Below, piece after piece: positions 25,901 through 41,870 of a stretch of 64,000 bases of DNA. Made by a program: the position numbers and the translations under genes. The stretch lies in the NCBI GenBank assembly GCA_041664625.1, contig JBAYKK010000002.1, forward strand, positions 7,755 to 71,754, read 5' to 3'. The notes under the pieces were generated by a model, which saw only the letters and a program-made list of their open reading frames with translations, ran no database searches and was not told where the DNA came from. Positions within the stretch are counted from its first letter, which is position 1, and each line of letters opens with the position of its first letter. The stretch comes from Minisyncoccota bacterium (GTDB lineage: Bacteria > Patescibacteriota > Minisyncoccia > Phycocordibacterales > WO2-35-19).

Positions 25901-26669
25901 CGCTCATCCAAATGAAGCTCTTACTGAAGACAAAGTAACTGAAATTTTAAGTACCAAAGAAATTTTGAGAGCCAAATATATAAATATGCCAATGCCAGAA
26001 GTTGCGACTGAACCATCGGTCACACAGACACCGGAAGTGCTAGAATTTTCAAAAGAACCAGATATTTTGCCAGAAGCCCTGGGGACACCAGAGGCACCAT
26101 TAGGGAAACCAACAGTAGATATGAATCCGGGGGAAACTGTCATGGCGGGGACCGGCTTAGCTGCCATGGGGCTTCTAAATAAAAACAATAGAAATCAATT
26201 AGAGGAGGAAATCAGGCAAGCCAAAGATAGATTGGGCGTACTTGAGGGCGGAAGAGCTAAAAACCCTAATTTGGAAAGGACTATGATGTCAGATTCTAAA
26301 TTTAACCAAGAGTTAGAAATGGCCTTTTTGGGCGAAATAGACAGTATATATGGCAAAAGTGGTTTGTTGGGTATAGGCCGAACACCGGGGATAAAGACCA
26401 AAGAATGGGCAGAAATGGCCAAAATTCCGGCTGTTAAGTTGGTAGAATATTATACCGGCGATTCTACAAAGGCTGGGCTTGCTCCAGACATTATCAAAAA
26501 ACTCACTATGAAAAATCATCAAACTTTGATGAGACAAATGGCGGGTCTCATGGAACAATCAAATGGAGCGGTCAAGCCGTTTGAAAATGAAAACGTAGAA
26601 CAATTTATTAGAAGATTGGGGGGCTATGTTTTGAGGACTCATTCTCAAAATTTAGCCAAAGCGGCATAA
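22917..26669 (+). CDS. giant hypothetical protein (1250 aa) with acidic/Pro-rich low-complexity, coiled coils and a Gly-rich TM cluster
   Basis: Single long ORF; PAPAPAPA and E/K-rich tracts; IGGFAGFAIGGATIGALGVGGYLG hydrophobic region. Confidence 0.7.
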   Translation: MSNESPQNPQPQYPEGYENWPQDDKEAFVKLKEKLADAGIKIQIVEAQMNQGMYNEDEKIFKIRQDANDVDYLTDCAENSIFKEQDGVDQLPDPGQVEDIHEDQEEETEKEDDEVEENRVFGGEKDDGSIDNKVSPEPAIVSAPAPAPASTPELQTEPNTNPTIEESGLEGEKLDNFLKKIGIAFFVHGDELENFKKLYPGLLGEKYKEIREAFEAFSGNETLREKFSTVVLTYPKELYYPKVSIEQEIRLYVDLRATKEDISDYLNNLPAEVPGSPEPGPSEIKEALGKNGETIKVGDKVEWDSFTGEGVGMLVSFEKTPGSHIKAIIDIGSDRQMEVYADELSIVKDNPEFGAVVLRLVEEGTEKEKLFVSLDEIKSIISIQLGQSAKIEELNLSETTEGLQLMVKLNAGMMGGKISMEGKIVNIGNDIAVQDLNIQARGYVKSQIESNVASFSSIIKTYFEKQKGKSVSGLQISGSGLVVEFENKKALKPTAVTSESDIPPAAVSTGENQPGNGEEWQNWEDWTEFEKTRARRAKGEVEHSQISEIIDGIYKSQKNNIAKKIEETLRKNAGENLTPEQELELRSKINDKIFEELVQKENEAYLTVLKEARGETKMGKVLEGAKSLLSTKAVQWYLGLSKTQRIGVSLAIGGFAGFAIGGATIGALGVGGYLGKRALTAVTGAGMGELVNKKKSWSLEEINKNEAEEIEGLKKSDFDLEKKSEKSAEIDKKYKKARLKAAAWKFGLTVAAGAGTSLLANLAEGAFVGVGSGGATKSALESKGGKSAPIQERLPRKGFEPGQKTASAPEGSVSKTTESVEPTKSSSPRPAEAVMPEPQIVARPIPFKEVPTESVVIKTPAVLEMSEPSAPEPVVLEKIFDNPEVLIHEVKAGDSTWNILKETLNNNEQFKGLTEAQQTYVLSSLTNKVLQNPQDYGLGDEGAIQIGDKTDFTKLFENTKEVNAIFEKASQTITAGGPQEVSILANNAKIANWVNAHPNEALTEDKVTEILSTKEILRAKYINMPMPEVATEPSVTQTPEVLEFSKEPDILPEALGTPEAPLGKPTVDMNPGETVMAGTGLAAMGLLNKNNRNQLEEEIRQAKDRLGVLEGGRAKNPNLERTMMSDSKFNQELEMAFLGEIDSIYGKSGLLGIGRTPGIKTKEWAEMAKIPAVKLVEYYTGDSTKAGLAPDIIKKLTMKNHQTLMRQMAGLMEQSNGAVKPFENENVEQFIRRLGGYVLRTHSQNLAKAA

Positions 26670-27088: not shown

Positions 27089-28291
27089 ATGGCAGAAGCT
27101 TTTGATCGTTCTAAACCTCACGTAAACGTCGGTACCATTGGTCACGTCGACCATGGTAAGACTACTTTGACCGCATCAATTTTGAGAATCCTCGATATGA
27201 AAAAAGGCGAGGGTTATGGTGCTCGCGTTGAAGCCGTCGATAACATTGACAACGCTCCTGAAGAAAAGGCCCGAGGGATTACCATCGCCTTGCACCACAG
27301 TGAATATTGGACTCCTACTAGACATTACGCTCACATCGACGCTCCAGGTCACGCCGACTACATTAAAAACATGATTACTGGTGCTGCTCAGATGGATGGT
27401 GCCGTGCTCGTCGTTGCCGCTACTGATGGTGTGATGCCTCAAACTCGTGAACACATCCTTTTGGCTCACCAAGTGGGTGTGCCTAAGATTATCGTTTTCT
27501 TGAACAAATGCGATATGGTACCCGAACAAGATCTTATTGATTTGGTGGAAGAAGAAATTCGTGAACTTTTGACCAAAAACCATTATGACGGTGCTGCCAC
27601 TCCTATCATCCGTGGTTCAGGTCTCAAAGCTTTGGAAGCTAAAGATTTGGAAGACCCTTACGCTAAAGCGGTAGTAGAATTGGTCAACGCTCTCGATACT
27701 TACATCCCAATGCCAGATCGTGAACTTGATAAACCTTTCCTTATGCCAATTGAAGACATCTTCTCCATTGAAGGTAGAGGAACTGTGGTTACTGGTAAAA
27801 TCGAAAGGGGTGTCGTAAAAGTCGGTGAAGACGTAGACGTCATCGGTTTGCATGATGCTCAAAAAACTACTGTTACCGGTATTGAAATGTTCAATAAACA
27901 ACTTGAAAGAGGAGAAGCGGGGGATAACGCCGGCATCTTGCTCCGAGGTTTGAAAAAAGACGACGTGCATCGTGGTCAGGTTATTGCTAAACCAGGAAGC
28001 GTCACCCCTCATACAGACTTTGAATCAGAAGTTTACATTTTGAAGAAAGAAGAAGGTGGTAGACACACTCCATTTTTCACTGGTTACAAACCTCAGTTCT
28101 ACATCAGAACTACTGACGTGACTGGTGAAGTGACTTTGAAAGAAGGAGTAGAAATGGTTATGCCTGGAGACACCGCAACCTTCAAAGTCAAATTGGTAGC
28201 CCCAGTGGCCCTTGAAGAAAAACAAAAGTTTGCTATCCGCGAAGGAGGCAAGACTGTGGGAGCGGGTTTCGTAACCAAAATAGTTGCATAA
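27089..28291 (+). CDS. tuf: elongation factor Tu
   Basis: [25 protein letters not shown] motifs; 400 aa. Confidence 0.97.
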
Positions 28292-28293
28292 AA

Positions 28294-28361
28294 ACACCTC
28301 ACCCCTAGCCCCTCTTCATCGTCTGTTCGATTCTGCTGAATCGCCTAGATTAGGAGAGGGG
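28294..28361 (+). repeat. R-family hairpin repeat copy R5 (expanded, extra inner hairpin)
   Basis: acacctcacccctagcccctcttc...cgattctgctgaatcg...ggagagggg directly after tuf stop. Confidence 0.65.
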
Positions 28362-28385
28362 AAAAGGAAAGGAACAAAAGATAAT

Positions 28386-28757
28386 ATGACAGAGAGTACA
28401 TTAAAAAAAGAAAAGAAAACAACAAAGGCTAAGGTCAAAAAAGAAGACCCTATCTCTAAGTTGCGCATCAGAGTCATGGCCTATGAATATAAAGTGCTTG
28501 ATATTTCGGTCAAGCAAATCATAGACACGGCTATGCGTTATGATGCCAAGATCGTCGGCCCGATACCTTTGCCAACTGAAATCAAAAAATGGACAGTCAA
28601 CCGTTCACCTTTCGTTTACAAAAATGCTCGTGAGCAGTTTGAAATGAGAGTCCATCGCCGAGTGATTGATATAGTGAACCCAAGCCCAAAAATAATGGAT
28701 TCACTGACCAATCTTTCTCTACCAAGTGGTGTGAGTATCGACGTGAAAATCATCTAA
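28386..28757 (+). CDS. rpsJ: 30S ribosomal protein S10 with N-terminal K/E-rich extension
   Basis: Core IRIRVMAYEYKVLDISVKQIIDTAMRYDAKIVGPIPLPT; start moved to ATG 28386 (RBS GGAAAGGAA) because track ORF start runs through repeat R5. Confidence 0.85.
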   Translation: MTESTLKKEKKTTKAKVKKEDPISKLRIRVMAYEYKVLDISVKQIIDTAMRYDAKIVGPIPLPTEIKKWTVNRSPFVYKNAREQFEMRVHRRVIDIVNPSPKIMDSLTNLSLPSGVSIDVKII

Positions 28758-28811
28758 TACGAAGTAACGAATAGATTACGAATTGCAACGAAAATTACTA
28801 CGAATCAAATC

Positions 28812-28838
28812 AAAAAACCGCTGAGAGGCGGTTTTTGG
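28812..28838 (+). terminator. rho-independent terminator aaccgctgagaggcggtt + TTTT
   Basis: Read directly after rpsJ. Confidence 0.65.
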
Positions 28839-28984
28839 TTATCAACAGCGGGTCTTGCGCTTATTTGGGGTTTGTGATATACTTAATTATGTGAGTGTGG
28901 GAAAGCAATTTTCAGCACAAATGAATGTCTGCGAAAGCGCCACCCTCGGGTGGCATTTTCGTTGGTTTTTGGCTATAAATTTGA

Positions 28985-29051
28985 CCCGGTAGTAGATTTT
29001 GATATCGCACTTAAAGTGCCGGCAAGGCCAATATCAAAATTCACTACTGGG
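28985..29051. repeat. MITE-like palindromic element, copy C (flanked by TTGAC direct repeats)
   Basis: cccggtagtagattttgatatc...gatatcaaaattcactactggg. Confidence 0.7.
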
Positions 29052-29079
29052 TTGACTTTATTTTTTGAGGGAGTATAAT
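29052..29079 (+). promoter_or_regulatory. strong sigma70-like promoter TTGACT-N16-TATAAT; -35 box lies in the MITE target-site duplication
   Basis: Hexamers read directly. Confidence 0.5.
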
Positions 29080-29099
29080 TAAAGCACAGTTTAAAAGAT

Positions 29100-29120
29100 C
29101 CCCCGAAAGGGGTTTTTTCT
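29100..29120 (+). terminator. hairpin ccccgaaagggg + TTTTTT shortly after promoter (attenuator-like)
   Basis: Read directly. Confidence 0.5.
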
Positions 29121-29164
29121 AAACAAAATTTTATTTTATAATATAAATAAATTAACAAACCATT

Positions 29165-29341
29165 ATGTCATTAATAAATTATTTTAAAGAAACTAAAGTT
29201 GAGCTTACTCATGTCAATTGGCCAACCAGGAAACAGTCGATAGTCTTTTCTATCGTGGTGGTTATCATCTCAATTTTGACTGCTTTCTTTTTGGGACTAT
29301 TTGATTTTATTTTTTCTAGGATTTTGAATTTATTCATTTAA
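29165..29341 (+). CDS. secE: preprotein translocase subunit SecE (58 aa; below the ORF-track length cutoff)
   Basis: Translated by hand: MSLINYFKETKVELTHVNWPTRKQSIVFSIVVVIISILTAFFLGLFDFIFSRILNLFI; conserved V.EL..V.WP...E + single TM; precedes nusG. Confidence 0.75.
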   Translation: MSLINYFKETKVELTHVNWPTRKQSIVFSIVVVIISILTAFFLGLFDFIFSRILNLFI

Positions 29342-29456
29342 GTAAGATACAAATATACGAATGGTGCGAATGAAACAAATAGTTAAATCATACGAATCAA
29401 AAAATTTTATTTGTAGTCATTAGTATCATTTGTATAATTAGTATATTAGTATCATT

Positions 29457-30002
29457 ATGTCAAAACAACAAACACAAGAAAGTCGAAATTGGTATGCTAT
29501 CCATACCTACTCTGGCTATGAAAATGCCGTTTTAAGGAACTTGAAACAGCGCATTGAATCTTTGGGCATGGAAGACAAAATCTTCAATGTTTTGGTGCCA
29601 GTGGAGAAAAAAATAAAAATAAAAGGTAATAAACGAGTAGAAGAAGAGGAAAAAATCTATCCGGGTTATGTCTTGGTAGATATGATAGTGACTGATGATT
29701 CTTGGTATGTCGTCCGTAACACTCCTCGTGTGACTGGTTTCGTCGGAGCGGGAGTTTTCCCAGTGCCACTTGATCCCAAAGAAGTAGAAGAACTTTTCAA
29801 GAGGATGAGTTCTGAGAAGGTCAAACACAACATTGATCTTTCGCTTGATGATGCGGTAAAGATTGTTGATGGGCCATTCAAAGATTTGGAGGGCAAAGTT
29901 GGGGAAGTAGATGAGGAACGAGGCAAGGTCAAAGTCTTGGTGCCTATGTTTGGCCGTGAGACTCCGGTAGAATTGGACTTCTTGCAAGTTAAAAAGATTT
30001 AA
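29457..30002 (+). CDS. nusG: transcription termination/antitermination factor NusG
   Basis: NWYAIHTYSGYEN NGN domain, C-terminal KOW (KVGEVDEERGKVKVLVPMFGRETPVELDF). Confidence 0.9.
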   Translation: MSKQQTQESRNWYAIHTYSGYENAVLRNLKQRIESLGMEDKIFNVLVPVEKKIKIKGNKRVEEEEKIYPGYVLVDMIVTDDSWYVVRNTPRVTGFVGAGVFPVPLDPKEVEELFKRMSSEKVKHNIDLSLDDAVKIVDGPFKDLEGKVGEVDEERGKVKVLVPMFGRETPVELDFLQVKKI

Positions 30003-30019
30003 GGTAAGGTATAACCCGT

Positions 30020-30439
30020 ATGGCAAAAAAAATAACAAAAAAAATAAAATTGGTTATAACGGCTAAAAAGGCCACTCCAGCACCTCCAGTAGGTACTGCG
30101 CTTGGTCCAGCTGGTATAAACATTGGTGAATTCGTCACCAAATTCAACGAGGCCACCAAAGACATGGAAGGTTTGGTGCCAGCCGAAATTACTGTTTATG
30201 AAGACCGAACTTTTGATTTCGTATTGAAAACTCCTCCGGCTTCGAGCCTCATAATGAAAGCTTTGGGTATCGAAAAAGGAGCTGGTAAAGCACCTAGTCA
30301 AAAAGTGGGCACTATCACTAAAAAACAACTAGAAGAAATCGCTCAAATAAAAATGGTGGATTTAAACGCTAACGACTTAGAGGCAGCTGTCAAAATAATC
30401 GCTGGTCAGTGTAGGAGTATGGGCGTTGAGGTGAAATAG
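30020..30439 (+). CDS. rplK: 50S ribosomal protein L11
   Basis: [29 protein letters not shown] motif. Confidence 0.9.
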
Positions 30440-30446
30440 GCAACCT

Positions 30447-31112
30447 CTATAAAAGATATTTTTCTATATCTAATAAATTATTTAATTGTAGACATTCTAC
30501 GTTTGAATCGGGAGTTTTTAGGTTTACCAAAATGCTTTGAATCCCAAGTTTTCTGGGTTGTTCGTAGTCGGAAGACACTCGATCACCAATATAAAGAAAA
30601 TTTTCTGTTTTATAATCTGAATAAAAACTGAACCATAAATTAAACGCAGAAAGATCAGATTTTGATCCGTTATCTGCTGTAATAACATTTGAAAAAGTTT
30701 GTTTGGGAATTTCTAATTTCTCTAATTTAATTGTTGCATTGCTTTTATTTGATCCAGTAATCAAATCAATAAATTTATATTTGGTTTTTAGATTATTTAG
30801 CAAATCAAGCACTTTTTTATTTGGTTTCAGAAATTTGGCAATTGGAGCGTTTTCCAATGCTTCCTGAATTATTTCTCCGGCTCTTTCAATAGGGAATCCA
30901 AGGACAACAAGACTCTTGCTTCCACTCAAACCTTTTCCTTTTTTATATAAACCATCAAATTTTTTTCTCGCAGTTTCTTTATCCATTTTAAAATTTTTAG
31001 CAATTTGATCATAAATATATGTTTGTATAGCATCATCTATTTCTGGTGATTTTGGATAAAGTGTTTGATCAAGATCAAAACCGATTATTTTTATTTCATT
31101 AAAATCTTTCAT
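30447..31112 (-). CDS. HAD-superfamily hydrolase
   Basis: Motif I FDLDQTLY, later K and DxxxD-like motifs. Confidence 0.7.
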   Translation of the reverse strand: MKDFNEIKIIGFDLDQTLYPKSPEIDDAIQTYIYDQIAKNFKMDKETARKKFDGLYKKGKGLSGSKSLVVLGFPIERAGEIIQEALENAPIAKFLKPNKKVLDLLNNLKTKYKFIDLITGSNKSNATIKLEKLEIPKQTFSNVITADNGSKSDLSAFNLWFSFYSDYKTENFLYIGDRVSSDYEQPRKLGIQSILVNLKTPDSNVECLQLNNLLDIEKYLL

Positions 31113-31202
31113 TTATTTAAGTATTTTGCCATAAATATTGAGTATAATCTAGTTTTACATTTAATTGTTAAACAGGTAATCTGTGGGCAGAGAGGAAAAT
31201 AT

Positions 31203-31841
31203 ATGCAAATCATTAAACATGAGCTTTTGTCTAAAACTGAGTTATTGAGACGTCTCAAAGAAACTCGATTGAGAGGTTTTGATAAATTTCCTGTGTATCA
31301 AAATGCCACCTTGGAAGTTTTGGAGCAGGTTGATACGGAATTGTTGGTTCCCCCACAAAAGTATGTGTTGGTGGAAGGGGTCAAGACCATTTTGGATTTA
31401 GCCAGAAAATTTGCCGAAAGAGGAGTAGACATTTTTTCTTTGCAGGGAGCTCTTTTGTTTTGGCTTGAAGGATCTGATCCAGACAATGATCCACCCATTC
31501 CGTTTCTCCCGCCGGTGGTGGAAGAATCTTGGGAAAAAGATGAGCGAATGGTACCGCTCATTAACGATGGTATGCACCGAGTGTATACTGCTCGTAAGTT
31601 GGGGCGAAAGATCAACATTGTTTTGGTCAGAAATGTTCCAAAGGAATATCCTTACTACGCCTATGCGTTGGCGGATGGTTGGTCTCAGGTGGAGGAAATT
31701 CCAGAGCTTACGGATGGATACAAGAAAAAAGAGTATCGTAATCCGGATAATTACAAAGCTTTGTTCAGGGATTTCAACGCTGTGTTTGAAGGGGTTCAGA
31801 AGGATCGGAAAAAAACCAATCCGATTGAAATCAAGGCGTGA
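31203..31841 (+). CDS. ParB/sulfiredoxin-like domain protein (hypothetical), GC-enriched island gene 1
   Basis: In-frame ATG 31203 (MQIIKHELL) with RBS; LINDGMHRVYTARKLG resembles ParB/Srx DGHHR..A..LG motif. Confidence 0.5.
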   Translation: MQIIKHELLSKTELLRRLKETRLRGFDKFPVYQNATLEVLEQVDTELLVPPQKYVLVEGVKTILDLARKFAERGVDIFSLQGALLFWLEGSDPDNDPPIPFLPPVVEESWEKDERMVPLINDGMHRVYTARKLGRKINIVLVRNVPKEYPYYAYALADGWSQVEEIPELTDGYKKKEYRNPDNYKALFRDFNAVFEGVQKDRKKTNPIEIKA

Positions 31842-31924
31842 GTGCTTGTGTGTGGGGTCGTATCATACGGCCCCACTTTCTTTTTATATAAAAAAATGTA
31901 AGCTAGTACTCAGAGGAGAACTTT

Positions 31925-32539
31925 ATGGGATTTCAACGACCATCTTGGGACGAAATGTTTATGCTCAACGCGATTCTTGCTGGAGTGAGATCGTCGTGTC
32001 TTGTTCGGCAAGTTGGAGCTTCACTCGTGAAAGGAAAGAGGATTGTCGCTTCTGGATACAATGGCGCACCAAAGAATGTAATCACTTGTCTTGATAAGGG
32101 AGAGTGTTACTATCAGCGCCTTGCCTACGACGATTCGCTAAAGGGGCACGGAGACTTCACTGTTCTTAAAGAAGAGCGGAAACAATTTTGTAGTGCTATC
32201 CATGCAGAACAGAATGCTCTGAACCAGTGTCTGGAACACGGGGTGGAACCAAAAGGATCAACTCTATTTGTGACTAACGATCCTTGTCCGGGGTGTACGA
32301 AAAACATCATTCAAGCAGAAGTTGCTAAGGTTGTTGTTTGGAAAGATTATCTTCGTAATAAATTACTCACGGAAGATGAGTATAGTGTATCTCGGTACTG
32401 GCTAGCTCAAGCAGGTGTGGCGGTGACCAAACTGGATCTTTCAAGAGAAAGAATTCAGGAAATATTTTCTCTTGCACTGTCAGTTGGTGATCGGACCTTG
32501 TATCAATTTGTTGGTATGCTCACACCTCCCCAATCTTAA
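31925..32539 (+). CDS. dCMP deaminase family (cytidine/deoxycytidylate deaminase, ComEB-like)
   Basis: PSWDEMFM, C..RQVGA..V, GYNGAP, HAEQNAL and PCPGC zinc ligands. Confidence 0.85.
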   Translation: MGFQRPSWDEMFMLNAILAGVRSSCLVRQVGASLVKGKRIVASGYNGAPKNVITCLDKGECYYQRLAYDDSLKGHGDFTVLKEERKQFCSAIHAEQNALNQCLEHGVEPKGSTLFVTNDPCPGCTKNIIQAEVAKVVVWKDYLRNKLLTEDEYSVSRYWLAQAGVAVTKLDLSRERIQEIFSLALSVGDRTLYQFVGMLTPPQS

Positions 32540-32606
32540 TGATTGCGGGAGGTGGTTTTTTTATAATATAAAAAGTGGTATAAACAATCAGGGAGGATCT
32601 TTGATT

Positions 32607-34109
32607 ATGAAATTTGAACCACTGTATTATGAGGGGCGTCTCAGGGTGGTAAACCCTGAAGGTGATGTGGGCGTAGTAACTCTGTGGTCTAAGGTTGATT
32701 CGGCTATTCAAGTAATGTTGGAAGCTGGAGTCGACCTCTGTGAACAAACTTCGCGGGTTGCGATAGTGGCTAACCTATACGGTAATGGGTTGCAACAAAT
32801 GCTTCGTAACTTGCTATGGAATCCGCAGATTCAGCATATCTTAATTTTGGGGAAGAATCTGTCAGGCTCGCAGGAATCGCTCGTCAACTTTTTCGCATAT
32901 GGTCTGGAGGAAGTTGAATTTTTGGGAGCAAAGGCCTTTCAGATTCGTAATACCACCAGAAAAATTGATGGAGAACTGCAGGCAGACCGTTTCAAATCGG
33001 TTCCAAAGTTTTCTGTCTTGGGAGACTTGGGGAGTTCTGAAACTAAGGATGGGTTGGTGAAGTATTTCCAAAATCTTCTGACCCGTTTTCAAGGTGAAAT
33101 GGTACGCATTGAACCGCCACCAATTCCTGAGCCCGTTATTACTCGTTTTCCGTCTGAAGTTCGGTCACAGACGATTGTTCGGCGGACACCAATGGAGGCA
33201 TGGTCGGAACTGATTTTCCGTCTGTATCGTTTTGGTCATCGCAATAAAGTGACCAAAAGGACGGGAGAAGAGACTCGGATCGAACTTCTGAACACTCATG
33301 TGGTAGTGGAAGAACCATTTGAGGAGACGGAAAAATGTCTTTCTGAGTATGGTTTTAGTTTGGAAAAGTTTAGAGAATATCAGGATCGTTTCTTGGATTC
33401 TCAAAAACCTTCCGATCTTGACTACACTTACGGCAATCGATTGCGTGGACATTTCCATCGGGGCGATGTGATCGTTGATTCGCCACTCATTGTCGCTGAT
33501 CGGCTTCGAGAGTCGCCAGACTCTCGTCACTGTTATATTGCTCTTTGGGATAATCGACTAGATTTGCCCGAAGGCACTAAGTGTCCATGTTTCGTTTCTG
33601 CTTTCTTTCGTCATTTTGATGGCAAGCTCAACTTGACGGCAAACTTTCGAACTCACAACGCTATGGATGCTTGGCCAGAAAACCTTTATGGTCTGATGGC
33701 ATTACAGCGTTTCGTGGCTGGGCATGCTTCAATGCAAGTTGGACCCATCACAGTGATTAGCCACTCCATCAGCATTGATCCTATTGCTTTGGAAAAAGCG
33801 AAAGGAGTGGTTGAAAACAAAAAGACAGATGAGGTTATGGATCCTTCGATCGGAAAGTATGGTCCAAGAATGGATCCAAACGGGGAATTTACAGTTACTT
33901 TGGACACCATTTCATTTGAAATAGTTGTCGAACATTCCTACGGTGGAATGAAAATCGGAGAGTATAGAGGCAAAACTTCCGAAGAAATCGAACGACAGCT
34001 GGCTCGAGATGTGGCACTTTCTCAAATTTCCCATGCTCTTTACTTGGGGCGAGAATTGGCTCGTAAACAAATCCAGCTGGATGCAATACGAGCAAAAAAG
34101 CTTCTTTAA
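32607..34109 (+). CDS. fusion protein: ~220-aa N-terminal domain of unknown function + C-terminal thymidylate synthase (ThyA) family domain
   Basis: ATG 32607 with GGGAGG RBS; ThyA-family motifs KRTGEETR (RTGTGT-like), YGNRLRGH (YG..WR), PDSRH (PDSRR), KCPCF (PCH Cys nucleophile), DGKLNL, FRTH (QRS), NLYGL (NIASY). Confidence 0.7.
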   Translation: MKFEPLYYEGRLRVVNPEGDVGVVTLWSKVDSAIQVMLEAGVDLCEQTSRVAIVANLYGNGLQQMLRNLLWNPQIQHILILGKNLSGSQESLVNFFAYGLEEVEFLGAKAFQIRNTTRKIDGELQADRFKSVPKFSVLGDLGSSETKDGLVKYFQNLLTRFQGEMVRIEPPPIPEPVITRFPSEVRSQTIVRRTPMEAWSELIFRLYRFGHRNKVTKRTGEETRIELLNTHVVVEEPFEETEKCLSEYGFSLEKFREYQDRFLDSQKPSDLDYTYGNRLRGHFHRGDVIVDSPLIVADRLRESPDSRHCYIALWDNRLDLPEGTKCPCFVSAFFRHFDGKLNLTANFRTHNAMDAWPENLYGLMALQRFVAGHASMQVGPITVISHSISIDPIALEKAKGVVENKKTDEVMDPSIGKYGPRMDPNGEFTVTLDTISFEIVVEHSYGGMKIGEYRGKTSEEIERQLARDVALSQISHALYLGRELARKQIQLDAIRAKKLL

Positions 34110-34111
34110 AA

Positions 34112-34155
34112 TGGTCCGTCGCTTCTATTTGGAGTGACGGGCCTTCTTTTTTAAA
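34112..34155 (+). terminator. rho-independent terminator ggtccgtc...gacgggcc + TTCTTTTTT closing the GC-rich island
   Basis: 8-bp stem with one G-U wobble then U-run. Confidence 0.5.
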
Positions 34156-34190
34156 ATAGAAAAAAATCAATTATGTGGTATATTTTGGGC

Positions 34191-35399
34191 ATGAAAGATA
34201 CACAAATTAAAAAACTAATAGAAAGTGAAAAGAAGAGACAAAAGCAAGTCATAAACCTTATTGCCTCCGAAAATTATGTCTCCAAAGATGTGCTGGAAGC
34301 GTTGGGCTCAGAGTTGACCAACAAATATGCCGAAGGTTATGCGGGCGCTAGATATTATGGGGGGAATGGGTTTGTGGATAAAATAGAAAATTTGTGTAAA
34401 GAAAGAGCACTCAAACTTTTTGGGCTATCAAATAAAAAATGGCATGTGAACGTCCAACCACTTTCTGGTTCACCGGCTAATTTGGCAGTTTATTTGGGCC
34501 TAGTGCCAGTGGGGGGCAAAATCATGGGTATGAATTTACAAGATGGAGGGCATTTAACACATGGCTACAAAGTTTCGATTACTGGTAAAGTCTGGCAACA
34601 AGTCCCTTTTGGAGTAGACAGTAAGACTGAGGTTATTGATTATGATGAATTGAAAAAAATGGCAATAAAAGAAAAACCTCAGATTATCGTGGCTGGGTTT
34701 ACGGCTTATCCAAGAATAGTTGATTTCAAAAAGTTTAGAGAGATAGCAGACTTGTCACGCCGAAGCGATGCGAAGGCGGATGCGCCGTATCTCATGGTGG
34801 ATATGTCGCATTTTGCTGGATTGGTGGCTGGCGGAGTCTACCCGACACCTTTCAAATATGCCGATGTGGTCACGACTACTACCCACAAAACTTTGCGTGG
34901 GCCAAGATCTGCCATGATTTTTTCTAAAATTGATGAGAGAGAAATTTATAAAAAAATAGACAAAGCGGTTTTCCCAGGGATTCAAGGCGGTCCACATTTA
35001 AATCAGATAGCAGGTATCGCAGTTGCTTTGAAAGAGGCTTCTGGCCCAAGTTTTCAAAAATACGCCAAGCAAATTATAAAAAATGCCGATACTCTAGCCA
35101 AAGAATTAAAAAAATTGGGTTGGCGAATAGTCTCTGGTGGGACTGATACGCACTTGATATTGGTAGACACTTGGATGGATGGGAAGGGGATCGGAGGCAA
35201 AGAGGCAAGTGATAAGTTGGAAGCAGCTGGGATTATAGTCAATAAAAATACTATCCCAGGGGATACGCGGTCACCGGTTGATCCATCTGGTATCCGACTT
35301 GGTACTGCCGCCGAAACTACTCGTGGCAAAAAAGAAAAAGACTTCGTAGTGATAGCTCAAAAAATCGATAAGGTTTTGAGATCAAAAATGGTAAAATAA
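34191..35399 (+). CDS. glyA: serine hydroxymethyltransferase
   Basis: ASENYVS, GYAGARYYGG, THKTLRGPR (PLP Lys) motifs; start chosen at MKDTQIKK. Confidence 0.9.
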   Translation: MKDTQIKKLIESEKKRQKQVINLIASENYVSKDVLEALGSELTNKYAEGYAGARYYGGNGFVDKIENLCKERALKLFGLSNKKWHVNVQPLSGSPANLAVYLGLVPVGGKIMGMNLQDGGHLTHGYKVSITGKVWQQVPFGVDSKTEVIDYDELKKMAIKEKPQIIVAGFTAYPRIVDFKKFREIADLSRRSDAKADAPYLMVDMSHFAGLVAGGVYPTPFKYADVVTTTTHKTLRGPRSAMIFSKIDEREIYKKIDKAVFPGIQGGPHLNQIAGIAVALKEASGPSFQKYAKQIIKNADTLAKELKKLGWRIVSGGTDTHLILVDTWMDGKGIGGKEASDKLEAAGIIVNKNTIPGDTRSPVDPSGIRLGTAAETTRGKKEKDFVVIAQKIDKVLRSKMVK

Positions 35400-35403
35400 A
35401 AGA

Positions 35404-35934
35404 ATGAAAATGAACGAAAGGAAAATTGCGATGGTTGATTTGGAAACCAGTGGGGACGTTTTTGGGGTGCATGAAATATTAGAGATCGGCCTGGTAGTTT
35501 TTGATCAAAATACTTTTGAAATAACAGATACTTTGAATGTAAAAGTTAAACCGCTTAATATCGAAAATGCAGTGCCAGCCGCTATTGCTAAAAATGGTTA
35601 TAAAGCAGAAGATTGGCAGGATGCAATTGATTTGAAAGAAGCAGTACAAATGTTTGCTGACAAAACTCACGATGCTATTTTTTGTGCTTACAACGCTACT
35701 TTTGATTGGGGTTTTATGAATGATGCTTTTAGGAAGACTGGGGTCAAAGATATGATGGATTATCACCGTTTAGATTTGCTCTCCATCGCTTGGGATAAAG
35801 GCTTAGCTAAAAATGAAAGTTGGAGTCTCAAAACCGCTTGCGATATGTTTGGTATTTCGCCTGAACCTGCTGTCCATAGAGCTTTGAATGGTGCCATGAT
35901 AGCGTATGAGCTTTATAAAAAACTCATGCAGTGA
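35404..35934 (+). CDS. 3'-5' exonuclease, DnaQ-like DEDDh family
   Basis: Exo I VDLETSG, Exo II FDWGF region, Exo III HRALNGA. Confidence 0.75.
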   Translation: MKMNERKIAMVDLETSGDVFGVHEILEIGLVVFDQNTFEITDTLNVKVKPLNIENAVPAAIAKNGYKAEDWQDAIDLKEAVQMFADKTHDAIFCAYNATFDWGFMNDAFRKTGVKDMMDYHRLDLLSIAWDKGLAKNESWSLKTACDMFGISPEPAVHRALNGAMIAYELYKKLMQ

Positions 35935-35948
35935 TGTAAAATAAATAT

Positions 35949-37631
35949 ATGAAAATTCAAGAAAAAATTAAAAAATGGATAAAAGAAACTTTGGAGATAG
36001 AAGGGGATTTTGTGTTGGCTCATCCCAAAGATTTGAAAAATGGTGATTATTCTTTCTTTGCTACGTCGAAGCTTTCAGCGAAAGCGAGTACTCCAGAAGA
36101 AGCGGTAAATATTTTAAATGAAAATAAAATTCCAGAAATAGAAAAAATAGAAGTAGTGGGCAAGTTTATAAATTTTTATTTATCCAAAGGTTTTTTTGTC
36201 GATTCGGTTAAAGAAATTTTAGATAAAAAAGAAAATTATGGCAAAAATAATTTGCTTGAGGGTCAAAAAATCTTGATTGAGCATACTCAACCCAATCCGT
36301 TCAAAGAATTTCATATTGGGCATTTGATGAACAATGCAGTAGGAGAATCAGTTTTTAGAATTTTGGATGCAAACGGAGCAGAGATTACGGCCGTTGGTTA
36401 TCATGGGGATGTGGGGCTTCACGTAGCCAAAACTATTTGGGGCAAAATGCAAAAACCGGAACTCTCTTGGGGAGAGGCTTATGCCTATGGTTCTCAAAAT
36501 TTTGACGATCATAAAATAGAGATAACCGAAATAAACAAAAAAGTTTACGAAAAATCAGATCAGGAAATAAATAAATTATATGAAAATGGTAAAAAAGATT
36601 GTTTAGATTATTTTGAATCGCTTTATAAAAGATTAGACAGTCATTTTGATTTTCATTTTTTTGAAAGTGAAACTGGGGAAGTAGGGCAGGCTTTGGTAAT
36701 GCAAAATGTGGGTAAAGTTTTTGAAAATGGTGAGGGCGGGGCGGTGATTTTCAAAGGTGAAAATTTTCAGCCCCAGACTCATACTCGAGTCTTCATAAAT
36801 TCAGAAGGTATTCCCACTTATGAAGCCAAAGAAGTAGGTTTGGCTAAAATTAAAAAGGAAAAATATGATTATGATAAATCCATTACTGTCACCGCTAACG
36901 AACAGGATGCATTTTTTGATGTGACTGAGGTGGCGATCGGTGAAGTGAGGCCAGAACTCAAAGGCAAACTCAAACATCTTTCACATGGTATGTTGCGATT
37001 ACCGAGTGGTAAAATGTCTAGTCGCACTGGAGAGGTGATTACTGCGGAAAATTTGATTGAGCAGGTGAAAGAAAAAGTTTTTGAAAAAATAAAAGATCGG
37101 GAATTTGATGAGAATGAAAAACAAGAGATTGCGGAGATAGTGGCGGTCGGTGCCATTAAGTATTCCGTCTTAAGGCAAGCTATCGGGGGAGACATTATTT
37201 TTGATTTTGATAAATCAATTTCATTCGAAGGGGATTCGGGCCCTTATCTGCAGTATGCTTGTGTGCGCGCTAATTCGGTTTTGGAAAAAGCTAAAGCAGC
37301 CAAAATGATTTCTTCTGTCGGCTTCGCTGATTTTCCTTCGGAAAATACGACTCTAGAAATCATTTTGGCTGCTTCCGCGACTGAATTAGAAAAAATATTG
37401 TATCGATTTGAAGAAGTAGTAGAGCGAGCAGGGCAGGAGTATGCTCCACATCATATCGTGACTTACTTGACCGAGCTCGCCAGTGTTTTCAATAGTTTTT
37501 ATGCTAATAATAAAATTATAGACGGGAGTGACACGACTTCACCTTATAAAATTGCTCTGACTACCGCAGTAGCTCATACTCTCAGATCCGGTCTCCATAT
37601 TTTGGGTATCAAAGTGCCGGAGAAAATGTGA
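35949..37631 (+). CDS. argS: arginine--tRNA ligase
   Basis: Class I HIGH (FHIGHLMN), C-terminal DALR anticodon-binding region ending ...VPEKM. Confidence 0.9.
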   Translation: MKIQEKIKKWIKETLEIEGDFVLAHPKDLKNGDYSFFATSKLSAKASTPEEAVNILNENKIPEIEKIEVVGKFINFYLSKGFFVDSVKEILDKKENYGKNNLLEGQKILIEHTQPNPFKEFHIGHLMNNAVGESVFRILDANGAEITAVGYHGDVGLHVAKTIWGKMQKPELSWGEAYAYGSQNFDDHKIEITEINKKVYEKSDQEINKLYENGKKDCLDYFESLYKRLDSHFDFHFFESETGEVGQALVMQNVGKVFENGEGGAVIFKGENFQPQTHTRVFINSEGIPTYEAKEVGLAKIKKEKYDYDKSITVTANEQDAFFDVTEVAIGEVRPELKGKLKHLSHGMLRLPSGKMSSRTGEVITAENLIEQVKEKVFEKIKDREFDENEKQEIAEIVAVGAIKYSVLRQAIGGDIIFDFDKSISFEGDSGPYLQYACVRANSVLEKAKAAKMISSVGFADFPSENTTLEIILAASATELEKILYRFEEVVERAGQEYAPHHIVTYLTELASVFNSFYANNKIIDGSDTTSPYKIALTTAVAHTLRSGLHILGIKVPEKM

Positions 37632-37780
37632 TTTTGCCACCAGCAAAATCATCCTGAGCTAAACAAATAATTTTGATTATTTTTTAGCGAAGGGTAAATT
37701 TTGCCACCAGCAAAATCATCCTGAGCTAAACAAATAATTTTGATTATTTTTTAGCGAAGGGTAAATTTTGCCACCAGCAA
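37631..37780 (+). repeat. perfect tandem direct repeat, 67-bp unit x2.2 (attttgccaccagcaaaatcatcctgagctaaacaaataattttgattattttttagcgaagggtaa)
   Basis: Units 37631-37697, 37698-37764 identical; partial third 37765-37780; between argS stop and next ATG. Confidence 0.9.
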
Positions 37781-37787
37781 TAAAAAT

Positions 37788-38054
37788 ATGAAAATATTAG
37801 TTAAAGCCAAGACGGGAGCCAAGGAAAGCAAAATAAAAAAACTGAAAGATTCTCAAAATCTTTTTGGTGAAATTAAGTCTGAGTTAGATACATATGCTGT
37901 TTGGGTCAAAGAGCGGCCAGTGGCCGGCCAGGCCAATCTGGCCATAATTAAGCTTTTGGCTGAATATTTTGAAATCTCTCAATCTGAGGTGGTTTTGGTT
38001 TCTGGCGCTTCAACCAAAACCAAGGTGTTTGATATAGTCAGTTTGCTAAGATAG
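37788..38054 (+). CDS. small conserved protein, DUF167/YggU-like
   Basis: 88 aa; KAK.GA....I....L.V....P..G.AN..II..LA pattern. Confidence 0.5.
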   Translation: MKILVKAKTGAKESKIKKLKDSQNLFGEIKSELDTYAVWVKERPVAGQANLAIIKLLAEYFEISQSEVVLVSGASTKTKVFDIVSLLR

Positions 38055-38065
38055 TCTCATTTGAT

Positions 38066-38132
38066 CCAGTAGTAGATTTTGACATTACACTTCATGCTGT
38101 GGCTTTGCCACGATGTCAAAATTCACTACTGG
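38066..38132. repeat. MITE-like palindromic element, copy D (TTGAT / TTGAC flanks)
   Basis: ccagtagtagattttgacat...atgtcaaaattcactactgg. Confidence 0.7.
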
Positions 38133-38133
38133 A

Positions 38134-38161
38134 TTGACAATAAAACGTTATTTGGTAGTAT
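38134..38161 (+). promoter_or_regulatory. promoter TTGACA-N16-(TGg)TAGTAT upstream of rpsS; -35 adjacent to MITE end
   Basis: Read directly. Confidence 0.4.
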
Positions 38162-38200
38162 ATTACCTATCCGCCCCAGGCGGATTAAATTTGTAATAAT

Positions 38201-38545
38201 ATGTCACGATCACTCAAAAAAGGCCCTTACGTTGACCCAAGGGTTATCAAAAAAATAGAAGGCAAAAAGCCTCAGGATACTGGGGTTATTAAGACTTGGT
38301 CTAGAGCTTGTACTATTTCACCAGAGATGGTGGGTTTCACTTTTGGCGTGCACAATGGCCGAGATCATATCGAAGTTTTCGTCACTGAAGATTTGGTAGG
38401 TCACAAATTGGGTGAATTTTCTTTGACTCGCAAATTTATAAAACACGGAGGAAAGATGCAAAAAGATTTGGAGGCTAAGAAAAAAGACGATGAAATAAAC
38501 GCTGCTAAAGCTGCTAAAGCTTCGGTGGATGCCAAGAAAAAATAA
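38201..38545 (+). CDS. rpsS: 30S ribosomal protein S19 with K/A-rich C-terminal extension
   Basis: SLKKGPYVD...[23 protein letters not shown] core. Confidence 0.9.
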
Positions 38546-38560
38546 AATACTCAAAACAAA

Positions 38561-38929
38561 ATGAACGAAATAACCGCACAGCTAAATAGTTACAGACAAT
38601 CACCAAGAAAAGTGAGAGTAGTCGCAGATGCACTGAGGGGTAAGTCTATAAAAGAAGCCAAAAGTAGATTGGATTTTATAATCAAACGCGCTACTGGCCC
38701 ATTGCACAAACTGCTCAATTCAGCTGTCGCTAATGCCAAAAATTTGGGAGCCGATGTTGATAAACTTTTTGTTAAATCTATTTCAGTAGATGCCGGTAAA
38801 ATTTTATACAGAAGGATGCCAGTTTCTCATGGTTCAGCCCACACTATCCATAAACGCACTTCTCATATCAAAATAGTTTTGGCTGAGAAATTTAAAGCAG
38901 TAAAAAATAAAGATAATAAGAAAAAATAA
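38561..38929 (+). CDS. rplV: 50S ribosomal protein L22
   Basis: R.SPRKVR.V.D.IRGK pattern. Confidence 0.85.
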   Translation: MNEITAQLNSYRQSPRKVRVVADALRGKSIKEAKSRLDFIIKRATGPLHKLLNSAVANAKNLGADVDKLFVKSISVDAGKILYRRMPVSHGSAHTIHKRTSHIKIVLAEKFKAVKNKDNKKK

Positions 38930-38933
38930 TTTT

Positions 38934-39608
38934 ATGACACACACAGTACATCCATATGCTCATAGATTAGGTATCATTCGTGACTGGAAGTCACGTTGGT
39001 TTAGTGTCAAAGACAAATACCGAGAAAATTTGAAAAGTGATGTTTTGGTTTTTGAATATTTAAAAAAGAGATTAAAAAATTGTTTTGTTAATACTACTGA
39101 AATAGAAAGAAGCGCCAAAGTTTTTAGAATCATCATCGAAACTTCTCGTCCTGGTTTTATAATCGGCCGAAGCGGTGAGGGGATGGTGAAGCTCAGAGAA
39201 GATATCATCCGTTTTATGAAAAGACGCAAGTTGAATTTGGCCGAAGAGCTCAAAATAGACGTCAAAGAAGTTAAATCTCCAGAATCCAGCTCTATGATCG
39301 CGGCTCAGATGGTGGCCGAAGGATTGGAAAAAAGATTGCCTTTCCGCCGAGTCATCAAGACTATGATCGAAAAAGCTTATGCTAACCGTGATGTCAAAGG
39401 AGTGAAGATTACTCTTTCCGGTATTATGGGCGGTTCGGCTATGGCGAGGATAGAGACCAAAAAGGTAGGGCGTATCCCTTTGCAGACTTTGCGTGCTGAT
39501 ATTGACTATGCACTTTATGAAGCTCATCTACCGCTTGGTAAAATTGGTATAAAAGTTTGGATTTATAAAGGCGATATTTTCGAAAAAGATAAAAGTGTAA
39601 AATCATAA
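38934..39608 (+). CDS. rpsC: 30S ribosomal protein S3
   Basis: HPYAHRLGI..DW.SRWF, KH domain, C-terminal domain. Confidence 0.9.
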   Translation: MTHTVHPYAHRLGIIRDWKSRWFSVKDKYRENLKSDVLVFEYLKKRLKNCFVNTTEIERSAKVFRIIIETSRPGFIIGRSGEGMVKLREDIIRFMKRRKLNLAEELKIDVKEVKSPESSSMIAAQMVAEGLEKRLPFRRVIKTMIEKAYANRDVKGVKITLSGIMGGSAMARIETKKVGRIPLQTLRADIDYALYEAHLPLGKIGIKVWIYKGDIFEKDKSVKS

Positions 39609-39617
39609 TTTAATATC

Positions 39618-40037
39618 ATGTTATTCCCAAAAAAAGTTAAATACAGAAAATGGCATACCATGCGCGAAAATCCTGACAAAGTGAGTCCGGCTACTCGTGG
39701 TATCAAAGTGTCTTTTGGTTCTCATGGCCTCAAAGCCATGGTACCCGGCAGGATCACTTCCAAACAAATCGAAGCGGCTAGAAAAGCCATCACTCACAAT
39801 TTGGGTAAAACTGGTAGAGTTTGGATACGTATTTTCCCAGATATGCCTTTCACCAAAAAGCCAGCCGAAGTGAAAATGGGTAAAGGTAAAGGTGATATAG
39901 AAGGTTACTTGGTCAGAGTTTTGGCTGGGCAAGTGATGTTTGAAGTAGATGGAGCAGTTGATGCTGTGGCCGTAGAATCATTGCGCAAAGGCGGTACCAA
40001 GATGCCAGTGAAGACTAAGATTGTGGCTAGAATATAA
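39618..40037 (+). CDS. rplP: 50S ribosomal protein L16
   Basis: [13 protein letters not shown]... Confidence 0.9.
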
Positions 40038-40075
40038 CACCCCCCAACCCCCCTCTTACATTAAGAGGGGGAGAG
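40037..40075 (+). repeat. R-family hairpin repeat copy R6 (between rplP and rpmC)
   Basis: acaccccccaacccccctct-tacattaa-gagggggagag. Confidence 0.7.
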
Positions 40076-40098
40076 AAAAGAAAAAACAAAACAAAAAA

Positions 40099-40281
40099 AT
40101 GAAAAAAGAATTAGCAAAAAAGAATAAAGCAGATTTGCAAAAAGAACTTGACGAAAAGCGAGTAGCAGTTCATAGTATACGCTTTAACATGGCTGGTAGT
40201 AAAAGTAAAAATGTTAAGGAACAAAAGAACATCAAAAAAGATATAGCCAGAATCAAGACTGAATTAAGAATTATGAATTAA
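40099..40281 (+). CDS. rpmC: 50S ribosomal protein L29
   Basis: MKKELAKKNKADLQKELDEKRVAVHSIRF; internal in-frame ATG used because track ORF start lies in repeat R6. Confidence 0.8.
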   Translation: MKKELAKKNKADLQKELDEKRVAVHSIRFNMAGSKSKNVKEQKNIKKDIARIKTELRIMN

Positions 40282-40286
40282 GAATT

Positions 40287-40562
40287 ATGGATAAAAAGAA
40301 AGAAAAAAAGAATACAGAAGCAACAGAGACTATTTCCAGAGCCAAGACTTTGACTGGGGTAGTGGTATCAGACAAGATGAAAGACACTTGCGTGGTTTCT
40401 ATCACTCGATTTGTTAAACACACCAAATACAAAAAATATTATAAAGTTAGCAAGAAATACAAAGTGCATGATGTTGGCAATATCAAAAAGATTGGCGATA
40501 AAGTAGAAATAATTTCTTGCCGACCGATTTCCAAAGATAAGCATTTCATAATTGTAAGTTAA
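40287..40562 (+). CDS. rpsQ: 30S ribosomal protein S17
   Basis: LTGVVVSDKMKDTCVV core. Confidence 0.9.
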   Translation: MDKKKEKKNTEATETISRAKTLTGVVVSDKMKDTCVVSITRFVKHTKYKKYYKVSKKYKVHDVGNIKKIGDKVEIISCRPISKDKHFIIVS

Positions 40563-40566
40563 AAAC

Positions 40567-40944: not shown

Positions 40945-40948
40945 GATA

Positions 40949-40989
40949 ACACCCCCCAACCCCCCTCTTACATTAAGAGGGGGGAGGGA
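40949..40989 (+). repeat. R-family hairpin repeat copy R7 (between rplN and rplX)
   Basis: acaccccccaacccccctct-tacattaa-gaggggggaggg. Confidence 0.7.
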
Positions 40990-41858: not shown

Positions 41859-41870
41859 TTTTTTCCCAGA

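Follow-up and report, generated by a model that had tools for sequence, protein, structure and literature searches.

A three-domain thymidylate synthase-family protein and its ParB/sulfiredoxin-fold partner in a gene module conserved across bacterial phyla

Thymidylate synthesis is essential and a drug target, and two forms of it, ThyA and ThyX, have been recognised so far. Here we describe a gene block at positions 31203-34155 of a 64,000-nucleotide stretch of a Minisyncoccota bacterium genome (contig JBAYKK010000002.1; the whole 64-kb stretch is called the window below), which encodes a protein of the ParB-CE family, a zinc-dependent deaminase and a 500-aa fusion protein of three domains with a thymidylate synthase (TS) core at its centre. 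A gene for a HAD-superfamily phosphatase lies on one side of the block and glyA on the other. The reading we favour, at about even confidence, is that the block is the candidate phyla radiation (CPR) version of a conserved cellular pyrimidine-deoxynucleotide module that makes deoxyuridine monophosphate (dUMP) and adds a one-carbon unit at its C5, most likely to give thymidine monophosphate (dTMP). The module is ordinary as a thymidylate-branch operon and unusual in its enzyme architecture, its ParB-fold partner and its conservation across phyla.

The nearest sequence relatives of the TS core are methanogen-type thymidylate synthases (model TIGR03283; Methanobacteriaceae sequences L082-L084 and Methanobacterium virus PhiF1), which share with the fusion a short TS core at 34-35% identity, the motifs YTYGNRLRGHF, SRR/SRH, (V/C)PC and (W/F)R(S/T)H, the catalytic Cys and the uracil-specifying Asn. 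Unlike the fusion, these enzymes are single-domain proteins (~205-227 aa) that keep D169 (E. coli ThyA numbering) and an H-I-Y motif, and they have no MtrA-like or DUF4346 domain and no ParB-CE partner. The bifunctional dihydrofolate reductase (DHFR)-TS of protozoa and plants likewise combines a TS core with a Rossmann-type domain in one chain that works in the folate cycle, a likeness of design only: the N-terminal domain of the fusion is homologous to MtrA and not to DHFR, a pterin-binding domain is added at the C-terminus, and no reductase activity is predicted. E. coli FolA as a query found no match in the fusion, and the Foldseek matches of the fusion to TcDHFR-TS rest on the TS part. With MtrA, the corrinoid subunit of methyl-H4MPT:CoM methyltransferase, the N-terminal domain shares homology over ~100 residues, including an NL(L/I)xNPxIR helix. 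It differs from MtrA in lacking His84 and Glu54, in scoring below the Pfam gathering threshold and in being joined to a TS core.

As a set of genes, the module resembles those of hydroxymethyluracil phages (SPO1, PhiW-14, SP10 and PaMx11), in which a dCMP deaminase, a TS-family dUMP hydroxymethyltransferase, a dUTPase or dTTPase and a nucleotidase or kinase stand side by side (PMC5889632). Unlike these phage sets, the module is cellular, includes ParB-CE and has neither 5-HMUDK nor a post-replicative enzyme; the fusion is only distantly related to the PaMx11 deoxyuridine hydroxymethyltransferase (25% identity), and by Pfam the phage hydroxymethyltransferases carry no MtrA-like or DUF4346 domain. 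In PaMx11 (L088, 3757-4353) the gene that follows the dUMP hydroxymethyltransferase, although named 'thyA', is an HD-domain YfbR-like 5'-deoxynucleotidase, a phage parallel to the pairing of a TS with a nucleotidase in the module.

The ParB-CE protein has counterparts in two further groups. Like sulfiredoxin (Srx), SerK and SbnI (PMC12704722), it has a single-domain ParB/Srx fold in which a PPI strand is followed by a G-x-H-R phosphate-binding motif. TM-scores to Srx-fold enzymes are low (~0.3 on the query, 0.55 on Srx), Met or Ile occupies the position of the catalytic Cys of Srx, and, unlike Srx, the protein has an EESxE insert and a C-terminal extension of ~70 residues with many conserved Lys, Arg and Tyr. 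The label 'CE' stands for conflict effector and is applied to predicted nucleotide-targeting immune effectors; in the PUA-Calcineurin-CE-HAD system, the HAD enzyme takes deoxynucleoside triphosphates (dNTPs) to diphosphates (dNDPs) and Calcineurin-CE takes dNDPs to monophosphates (PMC12871103). The module is similar in that a HAD phosphatase is tightly coupled to a CE-type nucleotide-handling domain, and differs in having a ParB rather than a calcineurin fold, no PUA sensor and a housekeeping context.

The block comprises the following genes and domains, in window coordinates:

31203..31841, + strand: ParB-CE gene (212 aa)
31925..32539, + strand: dCMP deaminase gene (204 aa)
32607..34109, + strand: three-domain thymidylate synthase-family gene, the fusion (500 aa)
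32607..33116, + strand: N-terminal MtrA-like Rossmann-type domain of the fusion (residues 1-170)
33162..33806, + strand: TS catalytic core of the fusion, methanogen/archaeal type (residues ~186-400)
33870..34082, + strand: PterinBD-DUF4346 domain of the fusion (residues 422-492)

An initial annotation made from the DNA letters alone (the sequence-only reading) had placed three genes in 31203-34155, and all three are there on the + strand, together with the motifs it had picked out (NDGMHRVYTARKLG, HAEQNAL, PCPGC and WPENLYGL). It had divided the largest protein into ~220 aa of unknown function and a TS-like C-terminal ~280 aa. Profile searches instead resolve an MtrA-like N-terminal domain, a central TS core and a C-terminal DUF4346 domain, the last being a pterin-binding domain that had been overlooked. 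We set the start of the fusion at 32607 (MKFEPLYY), where all homologues start, rather than at 32472, where the mechanically called open reading frame (ORF) opens. Pfam matches are to Thymidylat_synt (PF00303, 6.6e-8, 32.5 bits against a cut-off of 24.3) and PterinBD-DUF4346 (PF14251, 8.1e-15), and each of these families is matched by 53/53 members of the fusion family. Residues 192-389 match the methanogen TS model TIGR03283 at 1.9e-31 (109.2 bits against an equivalog cut-off of 174.55), and TIGR03284 gives 23.6 bits against an equivalog cut-off of 108.35. The AlphaFold2 (AF2) model of the fusion (pLDDT 83.8) retrieves MilA (5jnh) and ThyA with Foldseek at about 1e-12. More than 1000 homologues share this architecture, and both NCBI and JGI annotate the protein as 'thymidylate synthase'.

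The residues expected of a working enzyme are conserved throughout the family. We counted residue conservation over 47 diverse fusion members from seven or more lineages and found the nucleophile Cys328 and the general base Tyr275 of the ThyA family (E. coli C146 and Y94), the phosphate-binding arginines R307 and R348 (R126 and R166) and the uracil-specifying N359 (N177) to be invariant in 47/47. Conservation of these five catalytic and binding residues supports a predicted active enzyme that acts on a uracil nucleotide. The sequence-only reading had argued from the retained Asn for such a substrate, and its argument is strengthened by the invariance of N359 and by the recurrent dUMP-producing neighbours of the fusion (dCMP deaminase, dCTP deaminase and dUTPase). 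Four relatives of 680-840 aa (P0241, P0242, P0266 and P0376) run N-domain, TS, DUF4346, TS, DUF4346 and thus form a covalent TS dimer, in one of which (P0241) the catalytic Cys of the second TS copy is replaced by Ser; in P0267 the fusion and the HAD protein are joined in a single chain.

The Foldseek list for the full-length fusion was filled by TS matches, and the N-terminal domain was probed instead with a sequence profile against the PDB. A profile built from 24 N-domains found MtrA structures 8q3v_A at 3.2e-6 and 5laa at 7e-5. The Pfam family MtrA (PF04208) matches the N-domain at 0.0028, 17.8 bits against a gathering threshold of 25, and only 2/53 members match. In MtrA, His84 is the lower axial cobalt ligand and is hydrogen-bonded to Glu54 (PMC4915002). 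His84 sits in a two-residue insertion that is missing from the fusion family, and the position of Glu54 is occupied by Tyr58, with Tyr or Phe in 47/47 members. The absence of His84 rules out a His-on corrinoid binder.

Linkage of the fusion to the other genes of the module recurs across genomes. The window proteins served as queries against the ORFs of 84 genomic and 40 metagenomic loci. Of the genome loci, 59 were non-redundant and extended 2.5 kb or more to either side of the fusion, and at these we counted neighbours within 4 kb. ParB-CE lies near the fusion at 54/59 loci, on the same strand in 53, which rules out coincidence as the explanation of their adjacency. A HAD phosphatase is found at 40/59 loci, a dCMP or dCTP deaminase at 27/59, and one or both of them at 50/59. 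In Magnetococcales and Alphaproteobacteria the gene in the operon encodes a genuine dCTP deaminase (TIGR02274, 198.8 bits where the cut-off is 92.8), dut lies directly 3' in two CPR loci, and glyA adjoins the module in two CPR loci. A canonical thyA-folA pair occurs within 4 kb at 13 actinobacterial loci.

Homologues with 60-83% identity to the window fusion and ParB-CE occur in Patescibacteria and Acidobacteriota (Bryobacterales, Terriglobia), and homologues with 35-55% identity in Magnetococcales, Thiomargarita, Competibacteraceae, Solirubrobacterales, several actinomycetes, Synergistaceae and deltaproteobacteria. The acidobacterial genes run fusion-HAD-ParB-CE, and their stop and start codons overlap; searches that begin from ParB-CE recover this operon as well, and tyrS, rnhB, rplS, dnaE, mutL, uvrB and recX are among the genes that flank it. 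About 15 of the acidobacterial loci (L001, L003, L004 and L006-L013 among them) also have, upstream, genes for a 360-aa protein of unknown function and an intradiol (catechol 1,2-)dioxygenase-like protein that scores below equivalog cut-offs, and, 3' of the operon, a DUF6152 gene on the opposite strand (5922-7964 and 11205-11609 delimit these flanking genes in L001). In a neighbour-joining (NJ) tree, Bryobacterales and Terriglobia copies fall among CPR copies, which points to transfer between phyla but not to a recent import into the window genome. A fusion-HAD-ParB-CE operon of the Bryobacterales type also turns up on two metagenome-assembled genome (MAG) contigs labelled Bordetella (L015 and L029), which group with Acidobacteria in the tree; their labels are probably the result of mis-binning or mislabelling.

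The fusions of one clade (L107, L109, L111, L112 and L119), at 41-44% identity to that of the window, stand alone: neither ParB-CE nor a HAD or deaminase gene lies within 8 kb. These proteins indicate that the enzyme can work by itself and that ParB-CE is accessory rather than obligatory. The clade shares syntenic neighbours of its own: a GAF protein, an M23 peptidase, a sigma-54 activator, an agmatinase-family protein and deoxyhypusine synthase.

Within CPR bacteria the module has a fixed place among translation genes. The window order is tuf-rpsJ-secE-nusG-rplK, HAD (on the - strand), ParB-CE, deaminase, fusion, glyA, an RNase T-like exonuclease, argS and rpsS-rplV-rpsC. Three further CPR loci, from Saccharibacteria, Zambryskiibacteria and a different Patescibacteria MAG, carry ParB-CE, the deaminase, the fusion and a gene of HAD fold in the interval from nusG-rplK to argS; in Zambryskiibacteria the deaminase comes first. 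Identities to the window proteins in these three loci are 57-69%, the deaminase included. The glyA gene of the Saccharibacteria locus (L005), directly 3' of the module there, encodes a protein 74% identical to that of the window, so that by identity the divergence of the module among CPR loci appears similar to that of glyA. In the CPR stretches covered (the 64-kb window and ~8 kb on each side in the other three loci), the fusion is the only TS-family gene: there is no further thyA, thyX or folA in the window, and none of the CPR loci has folA close to the module. Near the block, no Rfam family was found, riboswitches included.

Two genes flank the block and bear on its function:

30447..31112, - strand: HAD-superfamily phosphatase gene, divergent from the block (Pfam HAD_2 and Hydrolase)
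34173..35399, + strand: glyA, serine hydroxymethyltransferase (PF00464 at 3e-159)

The HAD gene had been treated as a mere flank, and we consider that it probably belongs to the module although it is divergently transcribed. Its best NCBIfam matches are TIGR02253 and the pyrimidine 5'-nucleotidase model TIGR01993 (1.5e-10, full length), all below cut-off, and among solved structures its best matches are XMP phosphatase 7ef6 (9.7e-6) and two nucleotide phosphatases of yeast, 3nuq and 3onn; on these matches it is probably a pyrimidine or nucleotide 5'-nucleotidase. In the three other CPR loci the same slot holds an NT5C-like gene with a DFDGV motif, whereas the window has an Sdt1/XMP-phosphatase-like gene on the opposite strand. 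The best matches of both types are pyrimidine and nucleotide 5'-nucleotidases; for the NT5C-like type a profile search against the PDB gave no match, and the call comes from HAD motifs and a weak Pfam match. That different HAD families fill the slot looks like non-orthologous replacement and suggests that a nucleotidase is wanted there. The proposed connection of the block to dTMP metabolism and glyA holds.

The deaminase matches PF00383 (dCMP_cyt_deam_1) at 1.3e-19 (70.4 bits against a cut-off of 25) and carries the zinc and catalytic motifs HAEQNA and PCPGC together with an insertion of ~30 aa. It matches ComEB TIGR02571 at 4.9e-29 (101 bits, under the cut-off of 219) and the PHROG dCMP deaminase at 9e-41.

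Pfam assigns the first protein of the block to PF24392 (ParB-CE) at 2.2e-36, with 125.5 bits against a cut-off of 23 over profile positions 1-147 of 147, and the motifs DPxxDPPIP, EESxE and NDG[MI]HR are present. We collected 525 homologues, which show 63-83% identity across phyla and which databases label 'hypothetical protein'. The sequence-only reading had called this protein ParB/sulfiredoxin-like and had pointed to ParB-like nuclease domains in phage hypermodification clusters; the protein is neither a nuclease-type nor a partition ParB. There is no conserved Cys, no helix-turn-helix and no dimerisation domain; of the partition-ParB features sought (GERRxR, helix-turn-helix and C-terminal dimerisation domain) none was found, NDGMHR standing instead, and no other Pfam domain is present. 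The nearest folds are ATP-binding sulfiredoxin and free serine kinase: the AF2 model (pLDDT 83.7, pTM 0.84) retrieves Srx-ATP 3cyi (1.7e-4), Atu1540 2hwj and the free serine kinases 5x0j (SerK) and SbnI with Foldseek, and hhalign against human Srx gives a motif-consistent alignment at low probability. A sulfiredoxin-type reductase is ruled out by the lack of a conserved Cys, and a replacement for dUTPase by the co-occurrence of dut in CPR loci.

Based on these assignments, we propose the following route. The zinc deaminase would convert dCMP to dUMP, which other lineages would obtain via dCTP deaminase or dUTPase, and GlyA would supply 5,10-methylene-tetrahydrofolate from serine. Cys328 of the fusion would attack C6 of dUMP and a one-carbon unit would be transferred, with the DUF4346 and MtrA-like domains acting as accessory cofactor- or ligand-binding modules. 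We infer dUMP as the substrate, the one-carbon donor, and dTMP rather than 5-hydroxymethyl-dUMP as the product. The HAD enzyme may be a pyrimidine 5'-nucleotidase that trims dUMP and dTMP pools, or it may act with ParB-CE on (d)NTPs or (d)NDPs. ParB-CE is predicted to bind a nucleoside triphosphate through its Srx-like GxHR site, and could hydrolyse dCTP or dUTP towards the monophosphate substrate, transfer a phosphate or gate the synthase. By analogy with the PUA-Calcineurin-CE-HAD cascade, HAD and ParB-CE together may take dCTP or dUTP to the monophosphate.

Several observations weigh against this preferred reading. The TS core stays under the equivalog cut-offs of both TS models. Asn351 stands in place of the folate-contacting D169 in 46/47 members, where the methanogen TS retains Asp, and the R127 position is His in 34/47, departing from E. 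coli ThyA. D391 occupies the Y209 position in 43/47 members, and Ser389 the H207 position, where the methanogen TS keeps Tyr and His, respectively, and where both residues contact the deoxyribose 3'-OH in ThyA; these two equivalences come from an ungapped alignment with the methanogen TS, and with the invariant His386 and Ser387 close by a three-residue shift is possible. The closest phage relatives of the fusion include the dUMP hydroxymethyltransferase of PaMx11. For ParB-CE, the choice between NTP hydrolase, kinase and regulator is guesswork; a kinase or NTP-gated regulator would fit the modelled fold as well as a hydrolase. The thyA-folA pairs beside the module in Actinobacteria suggest redundancy or a different product. 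By these sequence measures, the fusion has the fold and catalytic residues of ThyA and falls short on the equivalog cut-offs and on Asp169, and we therefore class it apart from plain ThyA-family members. We know of no sequence signature that distinguishes methylating from hydroxymethylating TS homologues.

The alternative that survives best, though we regard it as unlikely, is a cellular 5-hydroxymethyl-pyrimidine pathway. Here the fusion would be a dUMP hydroxymethyltransferase that regenerates tetrahydrofolate, with no need of DHFR; ParB-CE would be a kinase, either for the 5'-phosphate or for the 5-CH2OH group just made, much as free serine kinase acts on the serine CH2OH; the HAD enzyme would remove competing dTMP and dUMP or proofread; and the product would be a modified base or nucleoside, or thymine via an activated intermediate. 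We keep this pathway in view because canonical thyA-folA pairs coexist with the module in Actinobacteria, because the family-wide D169N change and the apparent Y209D change set the fusion apart from proven TS enzymes, and because the module holds the same enzyme classes as the pre-replicative set of hydroxymethyluracil phages, namely a dC-nucleotide deaminase, a TS homologue, an NTP-handling enzyme and a nucleotidase (PMC5889632). The nearest folds of ParB-CE (Srx, SerK and SbnI) are also those of phosphotransferases that use ATP and have O-nucleophiles as acceptors, the lack of folA near the module in CPR loci would suit such chemistry, and the weak phage relatives of the fusion comprise, besides the PaMx11 enzyme, annotated dCMP hydroxymethylases. 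However, no 5-HMUDK-type kinase, glycosyltransferase or aminotransferase occurs in the CPR neighbourhoods, and the nearest sequence relatives of the TS core are thymidylate synthases of methanogens. An essential dTMP supply fits better with a gene that is the sole TS-family member of the CPR stretches and lies among translation genes. We are also aware of no report of a modified pyrimidine from these lineages, which we count against this pathway. We consider improbable a more specific proposal, in which the fusion hydroxymethylates dUMP without DHFR, ParB-CE phosphorylates the 5-CH2OH group to give an activated 5-phosphomethyl-dUMP, thymidylate follows by reduction or a modified pyrimidine enters the DNA or the nucleotide pool of CPR bacteria, Acidobacteria and other carriers, and the HAD enzyme proofreads.

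Next in rank, and quite improbable, is a nucleotide-depleting anti-phage system in which ParB-CE and HAD would degrade dNTPs on infection while the deaminase and the TS-like enzyme rewire pyrimidine pools. The Pfam family takes its name from predicted nucleotide-targeting immune effectors, and a HAD enzyme with a CE domain is a proven dNTP-depletion pair (PMC12871103). The deaminase domain resembles anti-phage dCTP deaminases in partial matches (NF041025 at 2.6e-23 and PADLOC dCTPase at 1.9e-28), and the phyletic pattern is patchy with evident transfer between phyla. Some actinomycete loci would also fit, with a 1007-aa ParB-CE protein and a giant WD40 protein beside the module. In Catellatospora and Actinokineospora (L057, 10945-13968; also L061) the former lies 3' of the module, with a second ParB-CE domain at its C-terminus (residues 828-941) and its first 800 residues without match; the latter, a WD40-repeat protein of ~1700 aa (L057, 2699-7885; also L061), lies 5', and a canonical thyA-folA pair lies 3'. 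Yet PADLOC gives no match for ParB-CE, the fusion or either HAD, and with its housekeeping neighbourhood ParB-CE does not occupy an effector position in an immune or conflict system. Identities of 60-83% across phyla are unlike those of fast-evolving defence genes, the place of the module in the ribosomal and translation region is fixed in four CPR lineages, and in Acidobacteria the flanks are housekeeping genes with no sensor or abortive-infection component.

The sequence-only reading had gone further and seen in the block an imported, G+C-rich island, possibly a phage-derived hypermodification cluster. Its excess of G+C is real (0.4375 against 0.380 for the window) but small and within the gene-to-gene spread of the window. 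The three block genes have G+C z-scores of +0.3, +1.4 and +1.4 in the distribution of window genes and GC3 z-scores of 0.4-1.1; tuf (z 1.6) and two further window genes (z 1.9) lie above all of them, nusG and rpsJ are similar or higher in G+C, and glyA has 0.412. The sharp contrast at the left flank arises mainly because the HAD gene is so AT-rich (G+C 0.282, z -2.3). That reading had itself named synteny among relatives and normal composition among the marks of a plain thymidylate module, and both are seen here: three other CPR lineages have kept the gene order, across CPR classes and inside the ribosomal-protein region, and the composition is ordinary. We found no integrase, tRNA or repeat boundaries at the block (the window tRNAs are only at 2.7 and 7.0 kb), and the genes called up to 10 kb to its left and right include no DNA-modification enzyme (5-HMUDK, glycosyl-, amino- or acyl-transferases, 5mYOX dioxygenase). 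ParB-CE has no relatives in 50,697 phage records or IMG/VR and no match in PHROGs, and in BFVD it finds generic ParB-fold matches only, with E above 1e-3; the fusion finds only TS-core matches in phages, at 23-29% identity. The recently imported phage-derived DNA pyrimidine hypermodification island, with little more to commend it than slightly raised G+C and GC3 and a ParB-fold gene that adjoins TS-family and deaminase genes, is thus very improbable given the lack of phage relatives of ParB-CE, the CPR synteny with glyA-like divergence, the composition matched by tuf and other core genes, and the absence of boundaries and DNA-modifying enzymes.

Two terminator-like elements were found in the block, the second of which bears out the suggestion that the block ends in a terminator of its own:

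31852..31886, + strand: terminator-like hairpin and T-run 3' of the ParB-CE gene (11 pairs, 7 G-C)
34113..34153, + strand: intrinsic-terminator-like hairpin and T-run 3' of the fusion gene (13 pairs, 8 G-C)

The total of terminator-like sites across the region is not above shuffle expectation; the stem at 31852-31886 is nevertheless long.

Other features of the window stand apart from the module. The ribosomal-protein region that surrounds it (27089-41900) is rearranged: rplA is missing after rplK, and rplC/D/W/B are missing between rpsJ and rpsS. A tRNA-Ile gene at 2745-2818 (- strand) has the anticodon TAT (UAU), an uncommon means of AUA decoding in bacteria, the majority of which rely on a CAU tRNA modified with lysidine. 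Between nusA and tuf lies a 1250-aa ORF (22917-26669, + strand) without a Pfam family, and at ~44000-51000 the G+C falls to 0.29-0.34, against a window mean of 0.38, over several short ORFs.

For the conflict effectors, PMC12871103 cites Nicastro et al. 2023 (NAR gkad879), which is the likely source of the ParB-CE name. In the literature searched, which did not cover that naming paper, we found no published work on the fusion architecture, on DUF4346 or on the linkage of TS, ParB-CE and HAD, and for ParB-CE only ParB-centromere and ParB-Cerulean papers turned up. The fusion represents a third, widespread architecture beside ThyA and ThyX, with an MtrA-like domain, a TS core and DUF4346 in one chain. 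It is found in more than 1000 sequences from CPR bacteria, Acidobacteriota, Magnetococcales, Actinomycetota, Synergistaceae and others, and most lineages link it to a nucleotidase and to a protein of ParB/sulfiredoxin fold. Its carriers include the cultured Catellatospora aurea, Actinokineospora spheciospongiae and Conexibacter sp., so that questions about the fusion are directly testable. If the fusion is the sole source of dTMP in small-genome CPR bacteria, it would explain how these organisms convert salvaged deoxycytidine nucleotides to deoxythymidine nucleotides. If its accessory domains change the use or recycling of the cofactor, it would bear on organisms that have thyA-type chemistry but no folA. 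And if the metabolic reading is true, the module would provide the first metabolic, non-conflict role for a ParB-CE domain.

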